NCBI RefSeq assembly: GCF_000018105.1
Contig: NC_009931.1
Coordinates: 62,962-94,961 of the forward strand
From: Acaryochloris marina MBIC11017
Lineage (GTDB): Bacteria > Cyanobacteriota > Cyanobacteriia > Thermosynechococcales > Thermosynechococcaceae
Direction: 5' to 3'
DNA length: 32,000 nucleotides
Notes under the pieces: generated by a model
What the model saw: the letters and a program-made list of their open reading frames with translations, nothing else
The model's database searches: none
What the model was told of the DNA's origin: nothing
Shown: positions 1,620 to 11,192 of the stretch, in pieces
Layout: every line of letters starts with the position of its first letter
Position numbering within the stretch: position 1 is the stretch's first letter
Translations under genes and position numbers: made by a program

Positions 1620-2105
1620 TCAATACCTTCCCACACTGTAAGCTCTCAATTCTGTTGACATACAATCTTGGCATATACAGTTTATTTCTAGTTGTGGGCT
1701 CGCAAGATGAAAGCCTGCATCGCTAGTGTTTTTCTTTAGCAAATCCATAATTGGTGCGCTTATCGCGACTTCCTTAACTTTTTGGCATTGACCACAGATT
1801 AAAAATTGCGTCTGAGCATGTTCTTGTTCGCACTTTATGTGTTCGCAAGCGACATACTTATTGATCAGATCAAGGCGATGCACCAAGTTCTCTGCCATTA
1901 AAAACTCTAAAATTCGATACATAGACATGGCAGGCATGGTGTCACCCAATTCAGTTTTATAAGCCTCCACTAACTCATAAGCAGAGAGTGCTTTGCTCGA
2001 TTTAAGTAACAGTGATAGCGCTAGTTTTCTTTTTTTAGTTAAACGCGAGCCGTTTTCTTTACAGCGTCGCTCTGCGTGATCGATCACCCGTTGAATAGCA
2101 TCCAT
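1620..2105 (-). CDS. Fur-family metalloregulator, proteobacterial Zur-like architecture
   Basis: 161-aa ORF. It has a long N-terminal helix (AERRCKENGSRLTKKRKLALSLL) followed by a winged helix (SAYELVEAY...MYRILEFLMAENLVHRL). Cys/His ligands are present (CEHIKCEQEH, CGQC, CICQDC). The overall layout resembles E. coli-type Zur more than the cyanobacterial Zur at 8585. It lies downstream of a COG0523 gene on the same strand. Confidence 0.75.
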   Translation of the reverse strand: MDAIQRVIDHAERRCKENGSRLTKKRKLALSLLLKSSKALSAYELVEAYKTELGDTMPAMSMYRILEFLMAENLVHRLDLINKYVACEHIKCEQEHAQTQFLICGQCQKVKEVAISAPIMDLLKKNTSDAGFHLASPQLEINCICQDCMSTELRAYSVGRY

Positions 2106-2353
2106 TCTTTATCTCAATGAAATTGCATTTTTAGTAGAGGCCAACGTTACTGTGCTCTGCTTGATTTCTGTTGCCCGCATCACATCACTTTTTTACTCCG
2201 GGGAACTTCAATAAATAGGGCCATTACACAAGTCAATCTTTAAGGCCTTTACAGCTAAAACACTAGCTCGCAGATATTTCGCTGTGGGCACTTTCATCAT
2301 GTTCTTCTGAGTTCATTACATCTGTTAAAAGTGAGTAATTCATATTAGTGAAC

Positions 2354-3562
2354 TCATGCGCTGTGACCCCACTCAGGAAATGGGTCGTTTAATGATTTCC
2401 AATAAGTGTGGCCCCGCACAATTTCTTCCTCGCTTAATAGACATTCATCAAGCGCTTGTGTGATGCGTTCTTTATCCAAACCCTGGCCGATAAAAACTAG
2501 CTCCTGACGCATATCACCAAAAGGCTCTACCCATTGCTTTTTAATTGCGGCGAGATATTCTTCGTCTTGCGGCCAGTTTTCCTTGGGTACGGCTTTCCAG
2601 AACATCCCTGCGACACCGTGGCGAGCTATGCCTCCAGCCTGACTCCAGTGACCCGCAAACTGAGGGCGCGAAGCTAGCCAGAAGTACCCTTTAGAACGGA
2701 TTAACTTACCGTATTTGTCTCTACTGGACAGAAACTGGTAAAACTTTTCTGGATGGAAAGGTCGTCGCGCAACGTAGCTAAAACTGCCTATGCCGTATTC
2801 TTCGGTTTCAGGGACATGCTCACCTCGCATCTCCTTGAGCCAACCAGCCGCTTGTTGTGCGCGCTCGAAATCGAATAATCCGGTGCTAAGCACATGATCA
2901 ATATTAACTTGGCCTTGAGCAATCGGTACTATTTTCGCGTGCGTATTCAGCGTTTTAAGAATGGCTGTTAAGCGTTCGATATCAGAAGGGAGCACCAAGT
3001 CGGTTTTGCTTATGAGAATGACGTCGGCGAACTCCACTTGATCGACCAGCAAATCGGCGACACTGCGTTCATCTTCTTCACCCAAAGATTCACCCGTATC
3101 CTTTAAGGATCGCGCCTTTTCATAGTCCTCCAGAAAATTGACTGCATCGACCACGGTCACCATTGTGTCTAGATCGGCAACATCAGAAAGCGAAGCGCCA
3201 TCTTCATCCGTAAAGGTAAAAGTTTCAGCTACAGGTAAAGGTTCAGAAATACCAGTGGATTCAATTACTAAATAATCAAAGCGACCCTCCCGTGCAAGCT
3301 TGTTAACTTCCTCAAGCAAATCTTCCCGTAAGGTGCAACAAATGCAGCCATTACTCATTTCAACAAGCTTTTCCTCGCTGCGGTTGAGAGAAACTTCACT
3401 TTGTACAATCGCCGAATCAATGTTGATTTCACTCATATCATTGACAATTACGGCGACCTTCTTGCCTTCCCGGTTGTTCAGAATGTGGCTCAGCACGGTG
3501 GTTTTACCGGCCCCAAGGAAACCTGAGAGTACGGTGACGGGGAGTTTGTTTGTATGTCTCAT
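2354..3562 (-). CDS. COG0523/CobW-family G3E GTPase, ZigA/YeiR-like putative zinc metallochaperone
   Basis: 402-aa ORF. It has the P-loop [11 protein letters not shown], the signature metal motif [21 protein letters not shown] and SKTDL. The long CobW C-terminal domain ([20 protein letters not shown]) is typical of ~400-aa ZigA-type proteins. Confidence 0.9.
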
Positions 3563-3626
3563 TGATTTCTATTACATTTCAATATGGTTCGTCTTTGGTT
3601 TGGCCAACTGATTGAATATTGAAAAC

Positions 3627-3652
3627 AAATGATATGATACATCGTATCATTT
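3627..3652. promoter_or_regulatory. Candidate Fur-family (Zur-type) operator upstream of the COG0523 gene
   Basis: The sequence is AAATGATATGATACATCGTATCATTT. It contains the 7-3-7 palindrome ATGATAC-atc-GTATCAT (3634-3650), nested in outer arms AAATGATA/TATCATTT. It lies about 70-90 nt upstream of the start at 3562. Confidence 0.45.
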
Positions 3653-4083
3653 TATTCTTTTGAATTTCGTGGAGCAGCCTAAAAGTCACTGTCTGTAACC
3701 ATTCGTTGGCCCAGTAATCAGTAGATGGAGCATGATAGCCCTCTCGTTTAGGCTTAAAGATCGCGAATCTGCATCCAAGTACCACGTGATCGTTGAAAGC
3801 TATATCTAGTAAGCATCCTTGGAAAATTTCCAAAAACTTTCCTGAGAACGGCAATTTATTGGAAAGTTTTTATTTTTTGATCCAAGCCGTGTTGTTCTAT
3901 CACAGGCATTTCTCAGAATAAATCTTGTCTAGAAGTTATTAGGCAACATTTATTACTTTGATTTTTGATTAATATTTAGATGTGGGTACTTACAGTTATG
4001 AATACTAGGTTTCACATAGATGTTTTTTGACCCCAGATGTTCCTTCTTAGAGATGGCTAGCACTTTTCTGTAGGTACTTATAG

Positions 4084-4509
4084 ATGCAACAACAAGCAGA
4101 TAAAATTATCCAAACTTTAAAAGCGAAAGGCCTGCGAGTCACACCCCAGCGTTTTGCAGTCTATGCAGACTTACTAGCTCGCTCAGACCACCCAACTGCG
4201 GAGCAAATTACGAATCATCTGAATCAAGATGGACCTACCTCTTCTCAGGCAACGGTCTACTCCTCACTCCAGGCCTTACGCGAAGTGGGGCTTGTTCGAG
4301 AGGTTCTCTTAGAAGAAGGTGTTTGTCGTTATGATGCCAATATCGAACCTCACCATCACTTCCGATGTCAGTCTTGTGGAGCGATTGAGGATATTGCCTG
4401 GGATCAGCTTCAGGATTTAGATTTTAAGGCGCTTCGCCCTGGGTTACAGGTCACTCATTATGAGATCACGGTACATGGTGGATATTGCAATCGCTGCCAC
4501 CCCGAATAA
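4084..4509 (+). CDS. Fur-family regulator, PerR-like
   Basis: 141-aa ORF. LRVTPQRFAVYADLL...HPTAEQI forms the winged helix. It also has VYSSLQALREVGLV, the HHHFRCQSCG motif and a C-terminal CNRC pair. The arrangement resembles PerR/FurC-type paralogs. Confidence 0.75.
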   Translation: MQQQADKIIQTLKAKGLRVTPQRFAVYADLLARSDHPTAEQITNHLNQDGPTSSQATVYSSLQALREVGLVREVLLEEGVCRYDANIEPHHHFRCQSCGAIEDIAWDQLQDLDFKALRPGLQVTHYEITVHGGYCNRCHPE

Positions 4510-4662
4510 AAGCAAAAAGCGTTTAGATACCCCGTTAATCTTATATCCTGCAATCGCAGAGTGATGACCCATTACCAATGATTTGCCCAGGACTTTTCGC
4601 AATTTTTCCCAGACTTAATTCACCATTGACAAGCCCTTGATTCAGATGGGTAGTAAGGACCG

Positions 4663-5091
4663 CTAACATTGAGGACAGATGGCATGAATTGATAATTGAC
4701 AATCTAACAGATGAAATCCTAATTTTTTGGCTGTCTTGGAACCGATTTTCAGAACAGCATCACTTTTAAACTCAATGGTTTCATTGCATTTAACACAAAT
4801 TAGATGGTGATGATGGTGGGGATAGGGCTGATTCAGTTCATAGTGTTTATGACCTTCAGCTAATTCTAACTCTCGCAAAATCCCCATGCGAGCCATTAAT
4901 TTCACCGTTCGATAAATGGTCGATAAACTAATGGGCTTACCCTGTTCTTGCAGGAGAGTATCTAAATCTTCGGCACTCAAATGTTTGCCTTTTTCGAGGT
5001 CTATAAACACATTAAGAATGGTTTCCCGCTGAGGGGTGAGGCGCCAACCTCGATCGTTCAGTTCTGCTTTGAGCGAGTTAGCGTCGTACAT
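4663..5091 (-). CDS. fur: Ferric uptake regulator Fur (cyanobacterial FurA type)
   Basis: 142-aa ORF. The N-terminus SLKAELNDRGWRLTPQRETIL, the segment LSTIYRTVKLMARMGILRELELAEGHKHYEL, the His run PHHHHHLICVKCN and the C-terminal CPQC closely match what I recall of the cyanobacterial Fur sequences (Synechocystis sll0567 / Anabaena FurA). Confidence 0.9.
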   Translation of the reverse strand: MYDANSLKAELNDRGWRLTPQRETILNVFIDLEKGKHLSAEDLDTLLQEQGKPISLSTIYRTVKLMARMGILRELELAEGHKHYELNQPYPHHHHHLICVKCNETIEFKSDAVLKIGSKTAKKLGFHLLDCQLSIHAICPQC

Positions 5092-5428
5092 AGTCTTTTC
5101 TCAAGAACATAAGCTTATTGAAAGTCTAACTATACATGGATGCTTTAGCAACAAGAAGATTTTATTGAGAAAAGAATAGCGGATTTTTTGCTCTCTGTAA
5201 TTGCTGATCGCCTGCATTAACAGGGTGTTTGAGCGATCAACCTTATCCTTGCTCAGCGATATGAAGCGCTAGTCCAGCCCCATTTAGAGTCCCAATCTGA
5301 CTGATGGTGACAGATTTTACTATGCTAAATCTCGGCTCTATGGACTTTCCCTAGAATTTAGTCCACCAGCTTATGCTTATCCGTTCTGTACCAGATGGGA
5401 TGGGGGCGTTGGCTGATTCTAAAAAATT

Positions 5429-5449
5429 ATGATAATGATAATCATTATA
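5429..5449. promoter_or_regulatory. Fur-box-like operator, copy 1 (upstream of the flavoprotein/FeoB-like operon)
   Basis: ATGATAATGATAATCATTATA. Positions 5431-5449 match the classical 19-bp Fur consensus GATAATGATAATCATTATC at 18 of 19 positions. The site ends about 30 nt upstream of the ATG at 5479. Confidence 0.7.
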
Positions 5450-5478
5450 TTAAACTCTTGCTGGCAGCAAGTCTATCC

Positions 5479-6600
5479 ATGAAAGAGACAAATTCTTCCT
5501 ATGACGTGGTGATAGTCGGTGCAGGGCCAGCCGGGGTCGGTTGTGCGGTTGCACTTCAAGAGCTGGGACTAGAAAACTTTATCTTGTTGGAACGACAGCA
5601 GGTAGGAGCCTCCTTTAGCCGCTGGCCAACGGAGATGAACTTGATAACCCCCTCGTTTCCGAGTCATGGTTTTGGCCTACTTGATCTCAATGCCATTACC
5701 CTGAAAACATCGCCAGCGATTGCCTTTCGCCGAGAACATCTTAATGGCCAGCAGTATGCGCTCTATTTGCAAACGGTGGTCAACCACTTCCAGTTACCTG
5801 TGAAGACAGGAACGGACGTTTTGGCAATTAAGCCCCTTTCTCAGTGTCGCGGCTTTATCCTCAAGACTTCTGGCGGAGACGTCAAAACCCAGTTTGTGAT
5901 CTGGGCTGCTGGGGAATTCCAATACCCAAGGTTAAATCCATTTGTGGGAGCAGACCATTGCATTCACAATTCTCAGATTCGCTCTTGGAAAAATTTGCCA
6001 GGGGATGAATTTACGATCATCGGTGGCTATGAAAGTGGTATGGATGCCGCGACCCACTTAGTCGAATTAGGGAAGAAGGTCAGGGTTTTAGATCGGACTG
6101 GGGCTTGGGACAACCCGGATACTGATCCGAGTATTGCGTTGTCACCCTATACAGTGCAGCGTGTAAAGCTAGCCACTCAAACGGGTCGCCTCAAACTGAT
6201 CGGCAATGTCTCCATTGAGGAAGTCAAAAAAGTGTCAGAGGGCTATGCCGTTTTCAGCAAATACGAGAAATGGCTGACAGTTCATCCCCCGATTCTGTGT
6301 ACTGGTTTTGAGACCAGCTTGCAGCAGATTGCGTCGCTGTTCGATTGGACGGAGGGTTATGCCATGTTGAATGATCAAGATGAGTCTACTCTGACGCCAG
6401 GTCTCTTTGTGGCTGGCCCCTCAGTCCGTCATCACAACGTTATTTTTTGCTTTATCTATAAATTTCGCCAGCGGTTTGCGGTAGTGGCTGATGCGATCGC
6501 ACGCCGTTTAGACCTTGACCCTGCACCATTAGAAATCTACCGCCGGCAAGGCATGTTTCTAGATGACCTGTCTTGTTGCGACAACGACTGTATCTGCTAA
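5479..6600 (+). CDS. FAD/NAD(P)-dependent oxidoreductase (CzcO/YpdA-like flavoprotein) with a C-terminal Cys-rich tail
   Basis: The tracked ORF is 5395-6600. I moved the start to the ATG at 5479 because the upstream 84 nt contain the operator. It has the dinucleotide-binding motif YDVVIVGAGPAGVGCAVAL and a second Rossmann-like segment FTIIGGYESGMDAATHL. The protein ends in LSCCDNDCIC. Confidence 0.8.
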   Translation: MKETNSSYDVVIVGAGPAGVGCAVALQELGLENFILLERQQVGASFSRWPTEMNLITPSFPSHGFGLLDLNAITLKTSPAIAFRREHLNGQQYALYLQTVVNHFQLPVKTGTDVLAIKPLSQCRGFILKTSGGDVKTQFVIWAAGEFQYPRLNPFVGADHCIHNSQIRSWKNLPGDEFTIIGGYESGMDAATHLVELGKKVRVLDRTGAWDNPDTDPSIALSPYTVQRVKLATQTGRLKLIGNVSIEEVKKVSEGYAVFSKYEKWLTVHPPILCTGFETSLQQIASLFDWTEGYAMLNDQDESTLTPGLFVAGPSVRHHNVIFCFIYKFRQRFAVVADAIARRLDLDPAPLEIYRRQGMFLDDLSCCDNDCIC

Positions 6601-6644
6601 CCCCTGTATCTGCTGAAAAATTTCTAAGTTGCTCAACATCCGCT

Positions 6645-8324
6645 ATGCCCCTGCTTACTTCACCAGCTCAGCGTTCTATCGTCGTAATCGGTAAAGAGAA
6701 TACGGGCAAATCTCAACTGGTTGCCTCGCTCACGGGATGTTTGCCCGACAGCATTAACTTCCGAGGCTCTACGATTGCCTGTGACACCTATATCGGAGGC
6801 GGACTGACTGTTGTGGATACCCCCGGTATTTTGTACCGTTCTGATCGGGTCACCACTCAAGCTGCACTGGCCCAATTAGAAACCCATGACACCGTGTTGT
6901 TGGTGATCAAAGCAACCCATATTGATGAAGATCTAGCGGATTTATGGCCCTTGGTGGTGGGGAAGCGGGGCATTGTTGTGATCACGTTTTGGGACAAAGC
7001 GTCTCAAGCTGGGTTTACCCAGCAGATTGTTCAATGCTGGGACCAAACCTCGAATCTGGCGTTTATCCCCGTTGATGCCAGACATCTAACCCCAGCCCAA
7101 CACCACGACATTCGGGCAGCCTTGCAAGAGCCGACTATATTTTCCCCAGAATGGCAACCCATTCCCACGGGATGGCGAATTGAACCGCGACCAACGGTGT
7201 TAGAACATCCACAGTTTGGCTGGCTGGTAGCGATCAGTTTTCTATTGCTGCCGACCCTACTTGCGGTGTGGTTTGCCAATAGTTTCGCAGCAGTTGCCGA
7301 TCCTCTGATGCAAGCGCTGCTCCAACCTCTAGTAGACGTTCTGGCTAATATACCTCTGTCTTTGCCCAGGGAAATGCTGATTGGGCGTTATGGCTTGCTA
7401 ACCATGGGACCGTTGCTATGGGTCTGGGCTGTACCGACCGTTATTCTCTATGCCTTATGTCTGGGAACTTACAAGGCCAGTGGCTTGGTAGAGCGAATCA
7501 CGGTTGCCCTCCATCCCCTGTTGCACCCCTTGGGTTTATCTGGACGGGATTTGGTGCGGGTCGTGATGGGATTTGGCTGTAATGTGCCAGCGGTGATCAG
7601 TACCCGTGCCTGTTCGAGTTGCGCTCGCCAAACATGTATGTCGGCGATTGCCTTTGGTTCTGCCTGTTCGTATCAATTCGGTGCCACCCTGGCAGTGTTT
7701 AGTGCAGCCCATCGGCCTAGTTTGGTGATTCCCTACCTGGGTTATCTCACTGTGACAACGCTGATTTACACTCGCTTGCTTGCCCCCAAGTCGGCTCGTT
7801 CGTCTCACAACCGGCTGATGATTGAACACCGCACATTTTTGGAAAGGCCCCGCTGGGCCACCATCTGGCGAGAAACCCAGGGCATGCTTCATCAGTTTTT
7901 TACCAGTGCTATTCCCATTTTTGTGGCCATTACCTTGATCGCGTCGCTTTTAGACGAGCTGAGTCTTCTGACTGCTGCTGCATCGATCATCCATCCCCTA
8001 ATGCAGATCTTTCGCCTCCCTCCAGAAGCAGCGTTGCCCATGATCCTGGCCTCTATTCGCAAAGATGGTCTGCTGCTCATTGCTGAACCTGAAACCCTCT
8101 CTGCTCTCACACCACTGCAGATTCTCACAGGGGTGTACCTGGCAGGTGTTTTATTGCCTTGTTTGGTCACGGCACTGACGATTGCCCGAGAACAGTCTCT
8201 CCGATTTGCCCTGGCGTTAATGGGTCGCCAGGCAATCATGGCAACTTGCTTCTCCTTGATCTTGGCCTGGGGTGGATACTGGTGCTCGAGTGCATTAGCC
8301 AACGTGGTGTTCCCCTTGCCTTAA
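6645..8324 (+). CDS. feoB: FeoB-family GTPase-permease (ferrous iron transporter-like); no feoA present
   Basis: The tracked ORF is 6573-8324. The ATG at 6645 avoids overlap with the upstream gene. The N-terminal G domain has VIGKENTGKS (G1) and VVDTPG (G3). The polytopic membrane part carries the FeoB gate signature GFGCNVPAVISTRAC. Confidence 0.8.
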   Translation: MPLLTSPAQRSIVVIGKENTGKSQLVASLTGCLPDSINFRGSTIACDTYIGGGLTVVDTPGILYRSDRVTTQAALAQLETHDTVLLVIKATHIDEDLADLWPLVVGKRGIVVITFWDKASQAGFTQQIVQCWDQTSNLAFIPVDARHLTPAQHHDIRAALQEPTIFSPEWQPIPTGWRIEPRPTVLEHPQFGWLVAISFLLLPTLLAVWFANSFAAVADPLMQALLQPLVDVLANIPLSLPREMLIGRYGLLTMGPLLWVWAVPTVILYALCLGTYKASGLVERITVALHPLLHPLGLSGRDLVRVVMGFGCNVPAVISTRACSSCARQTCMSAIAFGSACSYQFGATLAVFSAAHRPSLVIPYLGYLTVTTLIYTRLLAPKSARSSHNRLMIEHRTFLERPRWATIWRETQGMLHQFFTSAIPIFVAITLIASLLDELSLLTAAASIIHPLMQIFRLPPEAALPMILASIRKDGLLLIAEPETLSALTPLQILTGVYLAGVLLPCLVTALTIAREQSLRFALALMGRQAIMATCFSLILAWGGYWCSSALANVVFPLP

Positions 8325-8451
8325 TAGCGGTTCACCCTTGAGCGTAACCCATTGTTTCTAAACTCTAGGAAGAGGTTGGAAGATGCGATCACGCTTGGGC
8401 CACCATTGATCCTCTGCAACCGCCTGCGGTACTTAACCCGACGAGACTTGC

Positions 8452-8543
8452 CAGGGGTTAGGGTTGAATCTTGGTATCAGCAGCCTCTCAAGCAAAGCCG
8501 CTATTATAAAATGATAATGATAATCATTCTGATAACTCTTGAG
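8452..8543 (+). repeat. About 90-bp promoter/operator module, copy A
   Basis: The sequence is caGGGGTTAGGGTTGAATCTTG...CTCTCAAGC...TATAAAATGATAATGATAATCATTCTGATAACTCTTGAG. It is near-identical to 10377-10467: about 80 of 90 positions by eye, with one 1-nt indel. Confidence 0.9.
8511..8528. promoter_or_regulatory. Fur-box-like operator, copy 2 (upstream of zur)
   Basis: The exact 18-mer ATGATAATGATAATCATT. It contains the 6-1-6 palindrome AATGAT-A-ATCATT and overlaps a -10-like TAAAAT (8507-8512). It lies about 57-63 nt upstream of the 8585/8591 start. Confidence 0.7.
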
Positions 8544-8584
8544 ATCTGCAATCACACTGTTCTCATTCAAGATGCAATAAGAAG

Positions 8585-8980
8585 GTGAGTATGCCAGAGA
8601 AACTAACTCCCAATCAGCGACGCGTGTTGGAAGTCCTCTTTTCCACTCCTCAAGAATTCTCTGCCCAAGATCTGCATAAAGAATTCAAAAAGCAGCAACA
8701 AAGAGTGGGATTGGCAACGGTTTACCGTGCCCTTAAGGTCCTTCAGAAGTGTGGAAAAGTGCACACGCGCTTGTTACAGAATGGAGAAGCGGTTTATAGT
8801 ATTCCCTCTGCTCATCAACATCATCTAACCTGTGTGAGCTGTGGCAGTTCCATGCCTTTAATGAACGGTCCAGTCCACGAGTTAGAAAAGGAACTTGCCC
8901 AAACACAGAAATTTCAAGTTTTTTACCACACCCTAGAAGTCTTTGGTCTGTGTCAGAACTGCATTGAAGCAAAGGTTTAA
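8585..8980 (+). CDS. zur: Fur-family zinc uptake regulator (cyanobacterial Zur/FurB type)
   Basis: 131-aa ORF with a GTG at 8585 and an alternative ATG at 8591. LTPNQRRVLEVL...FSAQDLHKEF...GLATVYRALKVLQKCGKV, then HQHHLTCVSCG and a C-terminal CQNC. It resembles Synechocystis/Anabaena Zur as I recall them. Confidence 0.8.
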   Translation: MSMPEKLTPNQRRVLEVLFSTPQEFSAQDLHKEFKKQQQRVGLATVYRALKVLQKCGKVHTRLLQNGEAVYSIPSAHQHHLTCVSCGSSMPLMNGPVHELEKELAQTQKFQVFYHTLEVFGLCQNCIEAKV

Positions 8981-9131
8981 GCCAGAAGAAAGGTGATTAG
9001 GTGAGCCTAAATCTCCTTGACTTCATAACACCGGGTATCTAACTGATTGCTTATCAAAAACGCCAGCTCTTTGAAGGTTATAATGATGCCACCTTTGCGA
9101 CAACCCACGTTCTTCGGCTCTCTCTGACTTC

Positions 9132-9638
9132 ATGACACATGTCAGCATGTACTATCCAATTTTTGGGCCTGAGACGCTCTGCCCCCATTGCCGACAAGTG
9201 ATGCCAGCGTTGACCCTAACAGATACCTATCTTTGCAAACGTCATGGTGCATTTGAAGCAGATCCCAATACTGAAGAGTTAGTGCACTTACAATCTGGAC
9301 GCCATTGGCGGTTATGGGACGGGCAATGGTATCGCCAACATATCCATCCAGATGGCATTCGTTTCGAAATTCATGAAGCGTTAGATCGACTCTATACCGA
9401 AGGATATCGGGCGACAAAAGTCATCATCGCCCCGCGCTATCGCACGTTGATTAACTCTTTTCTAGAGCATTCTCCCTGGCCTGATCAAACCTCATCTGGG
9501 CATCCCTATTTATACGGTCTACCCGTAGAATTTGGTCCTGATCCCGAGCAAGATCCCCGTTGGCAAGTGATTAATTTTGATCTCGATAAAGAACCAGGAA
9601 TTCCCATTAATTCTCCCCATTCTCAGCTATTGTATTAG
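9132..9638 (+). CDS. Conserved hypothetical protein with an N-terminal CxxC...CxxH zinc-ribbon-like motif
   Basis: 168-aa ORF. It has LCPHCRQVMPALTLTDTYLCKRHGAF. The codon usage looks coding, and there are no competing ORFs except an antisense shadow. I suspect a cyanobacteria-restricted conserved family but cannot verify this. Confidence 0.65.
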   Translation: MTHVSMYYPIFGPETLCPHCRQVMPALTLTDTYLCKRHGAFEADPNTEELVHLQSGRHWRLWDGQWYRQHIHPDGIRFEIHEALDRLYTEGYRATKVIIAPRYRTLINSFLEHSPWPDQTSSGHPYLYGLPVEFGPDPEQDPRWQVINFDLDKEPGIPINSPHSQLLY

Positions 9639-9786
9639 GGCTTCTGAAGCGAAGCTTTTGTGTCTCATTAGTCAGATGGTGCGCTTTTTCCGTAAACAAG
9701 CGACCTCCAAAGCGTACTGGAGGGGCTGGGGCGATCTGCATCAGAGGCTGAGTTGGAAGTCCTTGCAACTCCATGAAGCGATCTAA

Positions 9787-9951
9787 AATGCGATGAAACA
9801 GGCACCCAGAGCCAGTTTCTTGGTGGAGAATCTAAACTCTAGTCTGCGCAACTATTTCACGCTTCTCACACATCTTGGGACACCCAATTTAGGACATCTT
9901 CAGTTCTTTCTCAACCACCGACAATTCATGAGTAGGGCATTGTCAACTTAA
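9787..9951 (+). pseudogene. C-terminal fragment of a DDE transposase
   Basis: The translation ...SFLVENLNSSLRNYFTLLTHLGTPNLGHLQFFLNHRQFMSRALST* matches the conserved C-terminal block (ENLNS.LRNYF...LQFFLNHR) of a transposase family common in cyanobacteria. There is no upstream catalytic part. Confidence 0.55.
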
Positions 9952-10045
9952 CGACCGATCACACAAAATGGGCACTATTTTTAACAATAGGCTCAGGATG
10001 GAGGGTTAAGCAGCAGTGCTTAGACCCGTCACATCACGCTAGCTT

Positions 10046-10348
10046 TCAAAACGCTGACTCAGCGTACTCAAAATTCAGGAGCAGATTGTTGATGTTGCAA
10101 GGGATGAAAATGTCCTCGTATGGGTTCAAATGTAGAGAAAAACGTTGAGCGTGGCCGGGAGATTTGAAGCGTCCCATCCGCGTTTCTCTCATCCTTGTCG
10201 GTCGATGTGGGTTCTCCGCTCGATTATTCAGTTCTTTATGCTGTCTGTGATCTACCCCCTTCAGGCTCTTTTTCGTGGCCACAGCATCATGCAAACGATT
10301 GTGGACGGTTCCCGCACTGATGCACGAATAAAATAGGTGGCGTAACAA
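10046..10348 (-). pseudogene. IS6-family (IS6100-like) transposase C-terminal fragment
   Basis: The translation contains ELNNRAENPHRPTRMRETRMGRFKSPGHAQRF. This is the LNNRAENSH..R.RER.M.RFKS block of IS6-family transposases. The DDE N-terminal portion is missing. Confidence 0.65.
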
Positions 10349-10376
10349 CTCAACGACACCTCAATAAGATGAATGG

Positions 10377-10467
10377 CAGGGGTTAGGGTTGAATCTTGTC
10401 TCAACGGTCTCTCAAGCAGAGTCGCTATCATAAAATGATAATGATAATCATTCCGATAACTCTTGAG
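10377..10467 (+). repeat. About 90-bp promoter/operator module, copy B
   Basis: Near-identical to 8452-8543 and in the same orientation. It ends 11 nt before the ATG of the HNH gene, with an AAGGA Shine-Dalgarno sequence in between. Confidence 0.9.
10435..10452. promoter_or_regulatory. Fur-box-like operator, copy 3 (upstream of the HNH endonuclease gene)
   Basis: The exact 18-mer ATGATAATGATAATCATT, 27 nt upstream of the ATG at 10479. Confidence 0.7.
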
Positions 10468-10478
10468 GATAAGGATCT

Positions 10479-10976
10479 ATGGGCAATGTTCTCGTTCTGA
10501 ATGCCTCCTATGAGCCGCTCAATATCACCAGTTGGCGTCGAGCGGTTGTTTTGGTCCTTAAAGAAAAAGCTGAGCAAGTGGAACACAACGGTAAGTTTGT
10601 GTATCGAGACTTTCCCCTCCCCACGGTTATTCGATTGCTCCAATATGTCCGTGTTCCGTATAAAGAAATTACCTTAAACCGTCGGAACTTACTGCATCGA
10701 GATAATCATACCTGCCAATACTGTGGATATACTGGCAGTGATTTGACCCTTGATCACGTAATGCCGAGATCCCGTGGCGGCGGTGATACTTGGGAAAATA
10801 TGGTGACGGCCTGTGTGCGCTGCAATGTCAAAAAAGGCAACCGCACTCCTAAAGAGGCACGGATGATACTGAATAAAACCCCGCGTCGCCCCCATAGTAG
10901 CTTGTACTTTGAGGTTACTAAACATTTTCGGAATGGGGTTCACCAAGAATGGCGCAAATATGTCATTGGCATGTAA
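10479..10976 (+). CDS. HNH endonuclease (McrA/COG1403-like)
   Basis: 165-aa ORF. The HNH/Zn-finger core is CQYCGYTGSDLTLDHVMPRSRGGGDTWENMVTACVRCNVKKGNRTP. The N-terminus VLVLNASYEPLNITSWRRAV is typical of this small HNH family. Confidence 0.9.
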   Translation: MGNVLVLNASYEPLNITSWRRAVVLVLKEKAEQVEHNGKFVYRDFPLPTVIRLLQYVRVPYKEITLNRRNLLHRDNHTCQYCGYTGSDLTLDHVMPRSRGGGDTWENMVTACVRCNVKKGNRTPKEARMILNKTPRRPHSSLYFEVTKHFRNGVHQEWRKYVIGM

Positions 10977-11192
10977 TGTGCATCTTCGTTTTTGGCTGAA
11001 AAATATATGTGAGGTGAGTATTCCTCCCTATCCATTTGGGGGTATCTTCACATCAAGGTGATAATCTTTTCGAATAGGATCGGAGAAAATAAGAGATATA
11101 TCTGCTCTGTTAGCTAACCTGCTGAATATGGGTTAGCAATCTCTTGTACTGAATGTGTACTAAATTGCCTTATATCGCAGTTTCAGATAAAG

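Follow-up and report, generated by a model that had tools for sequence, protein, structure and literature searches.

Probable capture of a zur promoter and its predicted Zur operator by a plasmid HNH endonuclease gene in Acaryochloris marina

A promoter/operator module upstream of zur and HNH

The DNA analysed here, called the window throughout, is a 32,000-nucleotide (nt) plasmid region of Acaryochloris marina MBIC11017 (NC_009931.1, positions 62,962 to 94,961), and pREC2 (AP026077.1), a plasmid of strain MBIC10699 of the same species, matches it at 97-99% identity. It carries a paralog of the metal regulator gene zur and, downstream on the same strand, a gene for an HNH endonuclease, each preceded by a copy of one module of about 95 nt. 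An earlier note on this DNA had proposed that a whole metal-responsive promoter was copied in front of an unrelated gene. The features on which this proposal turns are as follows.

8449-8543, plus strand: copy 1 of the direct repeat, conserved at zur paralogs and read as the core of the native zur promoter/operator (donor lineage)
8502-8507 and 8507-8512, plus strand: overlapping -10 candidates of copy 1, TATTAT and TAAAAT, from reading of the sequence
8512-8532, plus strand: two overlapping predicted Zur boxes of copy 1, TGATAATGATAATCA and TGATAATCATTCTGA, offset by 6 nt
8591-8980, plus strand: zur paralog, FurB type, 129 amino acids (aa), Pfam FUR
10374-10467, plus strand: copy 2, the putatively captured zur promoter/operator in place of the native HNH promoter
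10426-10431 and 10431-10436, plus strand: -10 candidates of copy 2, TATCAT and TAAAAT
10436-10450 and 10442-10456, plus strand: predicted Zur boxes of copy 2
10468-10478, plus strand: remnant of the native HNH leader, ATAAGGATCT, with an AAGGA ribosome-binding site, from alignment with four native Acaryochloris HNH loci
10479-10976, plus strand: HNH endonuclease gene, 165 aa, Pfam HNH
10977-11093, plus strand: native HNH 3' flank, duplicated together with the gene

A repeat search of the window resolved the pair into two adjoining direct-repeat blocks, 8449-8473/10374-10398 (25 nt, 96%) and 8474-8543/10398-10467 (70 nt, 89%), with the one-base offset between them corresponding to an indel. In the hand-checked alignment of 8449-8543 with 10374-10467, the 95 columns comprise 84 identities, 10 mismatches and 1 gap, in keeping with the colinear repeats of about 80 identical positions in 90 and one indel that had been estimated by eye, and blastn aligns the copies at 90.2% over 92 nt (E 2e-25). 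The 20-mer GGGGTTAGGGTTGAATCTTG occurs exactly twice in the window (8454 and 10379; 0 expected), and the 19-mer AATGATAATGATAATCATT is the same in both copies, starting at 8510 and 10434. A gap of 47 nt separates copy 1 from the zur ATG (8591), and one of 11 nt separates copy 2 from the HNH ATG (10479), so that the second copy does lie directly in front of the HNH gene. Both copies are 100% identical in MBIC10699 pREC2.

The operator core consists of two overlapping 7-1-7 boxes, TGATAATGATAATCA and TGATAATCATTCYGA, which abut the conserved TATYAT/TAAAAT -10 region and start at the last base of the TAAAAT candidate. The first box (8512-8526, 10436-10450) differs from TGATAATNATTATCA at 1 position and the overlapping second box at 2-3; the window holds 10 sites with at most 3 mismatches to this sequence, against 2.3 expected. 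When reference Zur sites from PMC10957091 (table S3) are used, the operator has 13/14 positions of the Anabaena Zur 7-1-7 consensus, whereas it agrees with the Anabaena FurA consensus AAATAAATTCTCAATAAAT at only 10/19. The gel-shift-tested Zur site of Anabaena all3515 is doubled with the same 6-nt offset (PMC10957091). Four Acaryochloris loci have the motif again before the chromosomal COG0523 gene, at a distance of about 42 nt, and it also precedes a TonB-dependent receptor gene on pREC1 and the oxidoreductase/FeoB-like operon. We therefore assign the operator as a predicted cyanobacterial Zur box of the regulon type, on the strength of the consensus match, the poor FurA match, the position of the motif before COG0523, a hallmark Zur target, and the naming of the ortholog as zur (PMC3323870).

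An alignment of zur upstream regions from the window, pREC1, two Acaryochloris chromosomes, a metagenome-assembled genome (MAG) and a Logan contig (7 loci) places copy 1 in its context. pREC1 and three chromosomal or metagenomic Acaryochloris loci have the module in front of their zur paralogs, and conservation there covers the whole promoter region, past both ends of the 95-nt core. The shared core of these promoters reads ...GTTAGGGTTGAATC...TTGACGG...TATCATAAAATGAGAATGATAATCAT..., with TATYAT in 7/7 and TAAAAT in 6/7, and the 3' end of copy 1 falls within what would be the zur 5' leader. The zur paralog of the window shares 85-86% identity with an A. marina protein encoded on the chromosome, the gene of which is a few genes from a COG0523 gene adjoining a WD40-repeat gene; Barnett et al. 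call the clade of the chromosomal A. marina ortholog Zur (PMC3323870). Because the module is conserved at zur loci, carries the Zur-motif match and shares its motif with COG0523, TonB and FeoB-like targets, we take it to be the ancestral autoregulated zur promoter, its predicted operator beginning at the last base of the -10 candidate.

The earlier note had located TAAAAT, CTCAAG and CTTGAG correctly in both copies and had taken the latter two (8487-8492/8538-8543 in copy 1, 10412-10417/10462-10467 in copy 2) for an inverted pair bracketing the operator. This last claim does not hold up: the pair is unconserved in the pREC1 and chromosomal zur promoters, and we therefore reject it as a functional palindrome and regard it as probably incidental.

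The upstream region of the plasmid HNH gene

The HNH protein belongs to the cyanobacterial core: identity is 78-93% across 80 cyanobacterial loci, and 78-93% likewise to the homologs aligned from Acaryochloris and other cyanobacteria. The operator is absent from the 300 nt next to the HNH start codon in all 80 of these other loci (the best candidate has 5/19 mismatches), and none shows synteny of HNH with metG, DUF2396 or zur, which makes the plasmid arrangement a mosaic. An HNH gene also remains on the chromosome, flanked by genes of DnaK-like and DHH-family type, and the plasmid gene is therefore an extra copy. Across the listed loci outside Acaryochloris the 165-aa protein is 78-83% identical, and its HNH domain gives a sub-threshold NCBIfam match to IscB/Cas9 HNH domains. 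In distant cyanobacteria the native HNH promoters have a conserved string about 30-40 nt before the start codon, which reads (G)CTACCATCTG in many lineages and, among Nostocales, TTAATATATGTAAAACTAATACCTTGAG.

Comparison with native loci reveals where the plasmid gene departs from them. The native upstream region is conserved in four Acaryochloris loci as ...ATGCTACTATCTGTATCAGATCTCCTTGG/ACAAGGATTCATG (the slash marks the junction), and the window matches only its last 11 nt; the native promoter that was replaced, itself well conserved, contains TGCTACTATCTG... Homology of the window to native HNH loci begins in blastn at 10467-10471, which is the 3' end of the repeat, and with the HNH locus of the A. 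marina chromosome it extends over 10471-11093 at 82.7%, reaching 117 nt past the stop codon. The 3' flank therefore came with the gene while the 5' flank was replaced. On the zur side the breakpoint lies inside the leader, the other 47 nt of which are conserved at zur loci and absent at HNH; no homology into the zur 5' leader or coding region follows copy 2. Since homology stops at 8543/10467, a segmental duplication of the zur gene itself is not supported. At the 3' junction the two parents share microhomology, CTCTTGAG/A at zur versus CTCCTTGG/A at native HNH, and the joint between copy 2 and HNH also forms GAGGA. A likeness between GTTAGGGTTG in the module and a string upstream of native HNH was judged coincidental, because the native string is degenerate among native loci and the homology between copies 1 and 2 runs 9 nt further upstream.

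Copy 2 has its closest relative in copy 1 (89.4% identity), followed by the pREC1 promoter (78.7%) and the chromosomal promoters (71-73%), and copies 1 and 2 share a derived change in the old -35 element (TTGACG to TCA...). Its source is therefore the copy 1 lineage. The duplication, its direction, its breakpoints and the operator-motif match can all be read directly from these alignments. In 90% clustering the plasmid HNH protein groups with non-marina Acaryochloris MAG proteins and not with the A. marina chromosomal ones, although when aligned it is 93% identical both to a MAG protein (P0261) and to a chromosomal protein (P0243); this hints only weakly that the extra copy may have arrived by transfer and not by duplication within the genome.

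The pair also falls under a published operational definition of promoter reuse, summarised in PMC3575422, that asks for identity of 80% or more across 50 nt or more in the -150..-50 interval before unrelated coding sequences of one genome. Within that interval copies 1 and 2 are 85.7% identical over 56 nt (E 1e-15), and the downstream genes are unrelated (Pfam FUR versus HNH, with no blastn similarity between the coding sequences). The capture of a regulatory module before an unrelated gene, as first proposed, thus gains support from the conservation of the zur promoter, the closeness of copy 2 to copy 1, the 0/80 operators at other HNH loci and the homology break. We consider it very likely, from the sequence comparisons, that a zur promoter/operator was copied in front of the HNH gene.

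Surrounding genes and related plasmids

The two copies lie within a larger set of metal-related genes and mobile-element remnants, listed here.

1620-5091: three further Fur-family genes and a COG0523/zigA gene
5430-5450, plus strand: third double Zur box, without module flanks, before the Pyr_redox_3/FeoB-like operon
about 5479-6600, plus strand: Pyr_redox_3 oxidoreductase gene
6573-8324, plus strand: gene for a FeoB-like protein
9132-9638, plus strand: TIGR02652/DUF2396 gene, 3' of zur on both plasmids
between the TIGR02652/DUF2396 and HNH genes: stretch of about 700 nt without an intact gene
9660-9945: repeat common to several Acaryochloris plasmids, possible insertion sequence (IS) debris
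10006-10279, minus strand: truncated IS6/IS240-family transposase gene of which only the C-terminal part is left
after the HNH gene, convergent, minus strand: metG

Four Fur-family genes fall within about 7.4 kb (1620-5091 and 8591-8980), an unusual density of metal regulators. They are of proteobacterial Zur-like type (beside zigA/COG0523), PerR-like, Fur-like and FurB/Zur type, and a second plasmid has the entire cluster in duplicate (pREC1 locus, 2864-8547), as the chromosome has part of it.

The third double box overlaps another copy of the 19-mer AATGATAATGATAATCATT (5428-5446, one mismatch) with no flanking module, and the site recurs on pREC1, pREC2 and in a MAG. It matches the E. coli Fur consensus at 18/19 positions and lies inside the longest open reading frame (from 5395) of the Pyr_redox_3 gene; for this reason translation probably begins at ATG 5479, giving the 373 aa annotated in MBIC10699. 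A flavin oxidoreductase and a FeoB-like GTPase/permease make up the operon, and on the chromosomes it has an additional 486-aa protein directly before zur.

The earlier note had described the DNA between the two copies as ending in transposase debris. This is borne out for the fragment at 10279-10006, which gives a tblastn match (E 6e-20) to a Leptolyngbya transposase and a weak Pfam match to DDE_Tnp_IS240, and which ends 95 nt upstream of copy 2. It is not borne out for about 9660-9945, where no Pfam transposase domain was found and transposase coding was not confirmed. In MBIC10699 pREC2 a 1344-nt TnpB element of IS605 type is inserted between the TIGR02652 and HNH genes, at window position 9860/9871 (4049-5392 in the MBIC10699 locus); the near-identical window plasmid is without it, which makes it a recent insertion polymorphism.

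Proposed zinc control, rival explanations and known systems

We propose that one copy of the zur promoter core came to lie 11 nt before the ATG of the extra plasmid HNH gene, with the neighbouring zur locus or its immediate ancestor as the source. Junction microhomology and the truncated IS6-family element on the 5' side lead us to infer illegitimate or IS-associated recombination, and not transposition of the module. Should copy 2 be active, its transcripts would begin within the boxes, at about 10438-10445, and carry a chimeric leader of about 35-40 nt with the GAGGA/AAGGA ribosome-binding sequences. In zinc-replete cells, Zn-Zur dimers bound to the boxes would shut RNA polymerase out of the transcription start region. 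The chromosomal and pREC1-type paralogs would be their probable source, since a predicted sensing Cys is missing from the adjacent paralog (see below). When zinc is scarce, the plasmid HNH gene would be derepressed together with zur, COG0523, the Pyr_redox_3/FeoB-like operon and the TonB-dependent receptor, while the chromosomal HNH gene would stay under native control. Promoter activity, Zur binding and a zinc response of copy 2 are thus what we infer from its sequence. Taken as a whole, the reading that a Zur promoter was captured at the plasmid HNH gene and brought predicted zinc-responsive control with it seems to us probable.

Several observations weigh against this reading. First, a simple sigma-70 consensus scan calls no promoter in either copy; the ancestral -35 element TTGACG is now TCAGCA in copy 1 and TCAACG in copy 2, and the chromosomal TGN extended -10 is lost from the plasmid copies. 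Chromosomal zur promoters have both elements, pREC1 has TTGACG only, and the window copies have neither (8476-8484, 10400-10408), which suggests that the plasmid zur-type promoters may be weaker or differently recognised. Second, no plus-strand terminator was found between zur and HNH (8980-10479), so that read-through could add to HNH expression. Third, divergence between the copies is 2/42 in the -10/operator half versus 9/53 in the upstream half, a trend only (Fisher p = 0.10), and we do not claim selection on the operator half. Fourth, the E. coli Fur box, too, agrees with the operator at 16-17/19 positions, and three other Fur-family genes lie within 7 kb. Fifth, the adjacent zur paralog has Gly at residue 93 (codon GGT, 8867-8869), where 110/111 scorable homologs, with the pREC1 and chromosomal Zur paralogs among those retaining it, have the Cys of a C-P-V-H motif. 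The aligned Cys is one of the four ligands predicted for the cyanobacterial zinc-sensing site (C98 in the Pro1502 model; PMC3323870), and the Gly93 protein may accordingly be zinc-blind or have a shifted threshold. Lastly, control by zinc starvation has no obvious rationale for a zinc-finger HNH protein.

The first three of these points would also fit an alternative in which the duplication is real and copy 2 is an inert scar of an IS-driven rearrangement, the HNH gene being silent or expressed by read-through from the zur-TIGR02652 unit; the IS debris upstream, and the TnpB insertion tolerated there in MBIC10699, point the same way. However, the -10 candidate and both Zur boxes of copy 2 are intact, and copy 1, the zur paralog's only promoter, is degraded in its -35 region in the same way. 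The HNH gene likewise has an intact reading frame in which every invariant residue of the family is present, a good ribosome-binding site remains at the junction, 9 nt from the ATG, and two strains share the arrangement unchanged. Read-through would itself begin at Zur-controlled promoters. We regard an inert scar as unlikely.

The fourth point raises the question of which regulator would bind. If the operator served as an iron (Fur) box, or were recognised by a different one of the clustered Fur paralogs, the HNH gene would respond to iron or peroxide. The E. coli Fur consensus match, which is highest at the 5431 site, would allow this, FeoB-like transporters and TonB-dependent receptors are classical Fur targets, and the window encodes Fur-like, PerR-like and proteobacterial-Zur-like paralogs. 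The cyanobacterial FurA consensus is nonetheless a different sequence, poorly matched here, whereas the motif equals the gel-shift-supported Anabaena Zur 7-1-7 site, doubled form included, and precedes zur in every Acaryochloris locus examined as well as chromosomal COG0523. TonB-dependent receptors, moreover, are also Zur targets in Anabaena (PMC3323870). An iron or peroxide response therefore appears rather more doubtful than the inert scar.

A bolder extension of zinc control would make the plasmid a growing zinc-starvation 'backup' island, in which extra copies of zinc-requiring housekeeping genes are wired to Zur by promoter capture and raised in dosage when zinc is scarce. Its members would be HNH and perhaps the nearby MetRS and PriA, with the Gly93 Zur as a regulator of altered threshold. 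Unlike the known replacement of zinc proteins by zinc-independent paralogs, this would increase the dosage of proteins that require zinc, and we think it improbable.

Searches for further copies bear on whether the module is a repeat in its own right. A 121-mer searched against the plasmids of PLSDB matches only MBIC10699 pREC1 and pREC2, at four places that are all at zur, at HNH or bare operators, and plasmids of other Acaryochloris strains in PLSDB have no module copy; the generic dispersal that the earlier note had asked to be checked is thus not seen among these plasmids. The exact 20-mer GGGGTTAGGGTTGAATCTTG has 0 matches in 185,579 GTDB species-representative genomes (the source genome is not among them), which makes the 5' part of the module lineage-specific, and the module-plus-operator pattern has 0 matches in JGI metagenomes. 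Neither copy has an Rfam match or a significant fold (folding z-scores +0.07 to -1.7), and a riboswitch or small RNA identity was rejected on these grounds. A small mobile or dispersed repeat, of MITE (miniature inverted-repeat transposable element) or REP (repetitive extragenic palindromic) type, that carries the operator by chance is hardly credible: its ends do form a weak inverted repeat in the predicted fold (CAGGGGTTA versus CAAGAGTTA, 7/9) and mobile DNA is close by, but this likeness is unconserved in other zur promoters, the homology of zur copies passes the 95 nt on both sides, no target-site duplication was seen at copy 2, and the many copies and terminal inverted repeats of such a class are wanting in the plasmids, representative genomes and loci searched.

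Capture of the zur promoter with its predicted zinc control remains the reading we prefer, and it is an instance of known processes, promoter reuse and regulon expansion by duplication of a cis element, with no new mechanism or system. Our literature search found no description of this case or of Zur-linked promoter capture. What it offers is a well-resolved natural regulon expansion in which a complete cis-regulatory unit (-10 region and double operator) was duplicated, in which donor, recipient, breakpoints and replaced native promoter can all be identified, and in which the untouched chromosomal HNH gene serves as an internal control. It could provide a simple experimental system for asking whether captured promoters bring their regulation along, and it ties a very highly conserved cyanobacterial HNH protein to a condition in which one copy might be induced.

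The operator itself resembles those of the cyanobacterial Zur regulon (Anabaena FurB/Zur; Napolitano et al. 2012; PMC10957091; PMC3323870): the site is of the TGATAATNATTATCA type, doubled as at all3515/zepA with a 6-nt box offset, it starts at the last base of a -10 candidate, and its partners include COG0523 and a TonB-dependent receptor. The Acaryochloris sites are predicted from their sequence. No HNH endonuclease belongs to the Anabaena regulon as summarised in PMC3323870 and PMC6103462, and the plasmid HNH protein, which retains its zinc-binding cysteines, is no zinc-independent substitute. As in autoregulated Fur-family promoters, copy 1 sets the regulator's predicted operator over its own presumed promoter, an arrangement found in every Acaryochloris zur locus examined; copy 2 differs in carrying the autoregulatory element to a gene that is not a regulator.

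Among cases of promoter reuse, the closest parallels are the putative mobile promoters of Matus-Garcia, Nijveen and van Passel (2012; PMC3575422). They too combine highly similar upstream DNA with unrelated genes in one genome, and several of the captures described have, like this one, an IS remnant nearby. The survey left out the -50..-1 zone, where most of the present operator sits. In contrast to those cases, donor, direction, both breakpoints and the replaced native promoter can be reconstructed here from relatives, and the segment carries an identifiable transcription-factor operator. The placing of a gene behind a foreign, differently regulated promoter also recalls the rnk-citT fusion of E. 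coli Cit+ (Blount et al. 2012) and the IS-mediated activation of Lactococcus ldh, both as cited in PMC3575422. Unlike in the Cit+ case, only about 95 nt of promoter was placed here, between an IS remnant and a gene. The Cit+ capture reportedly arose by a tandem duplication that fused whole segments.

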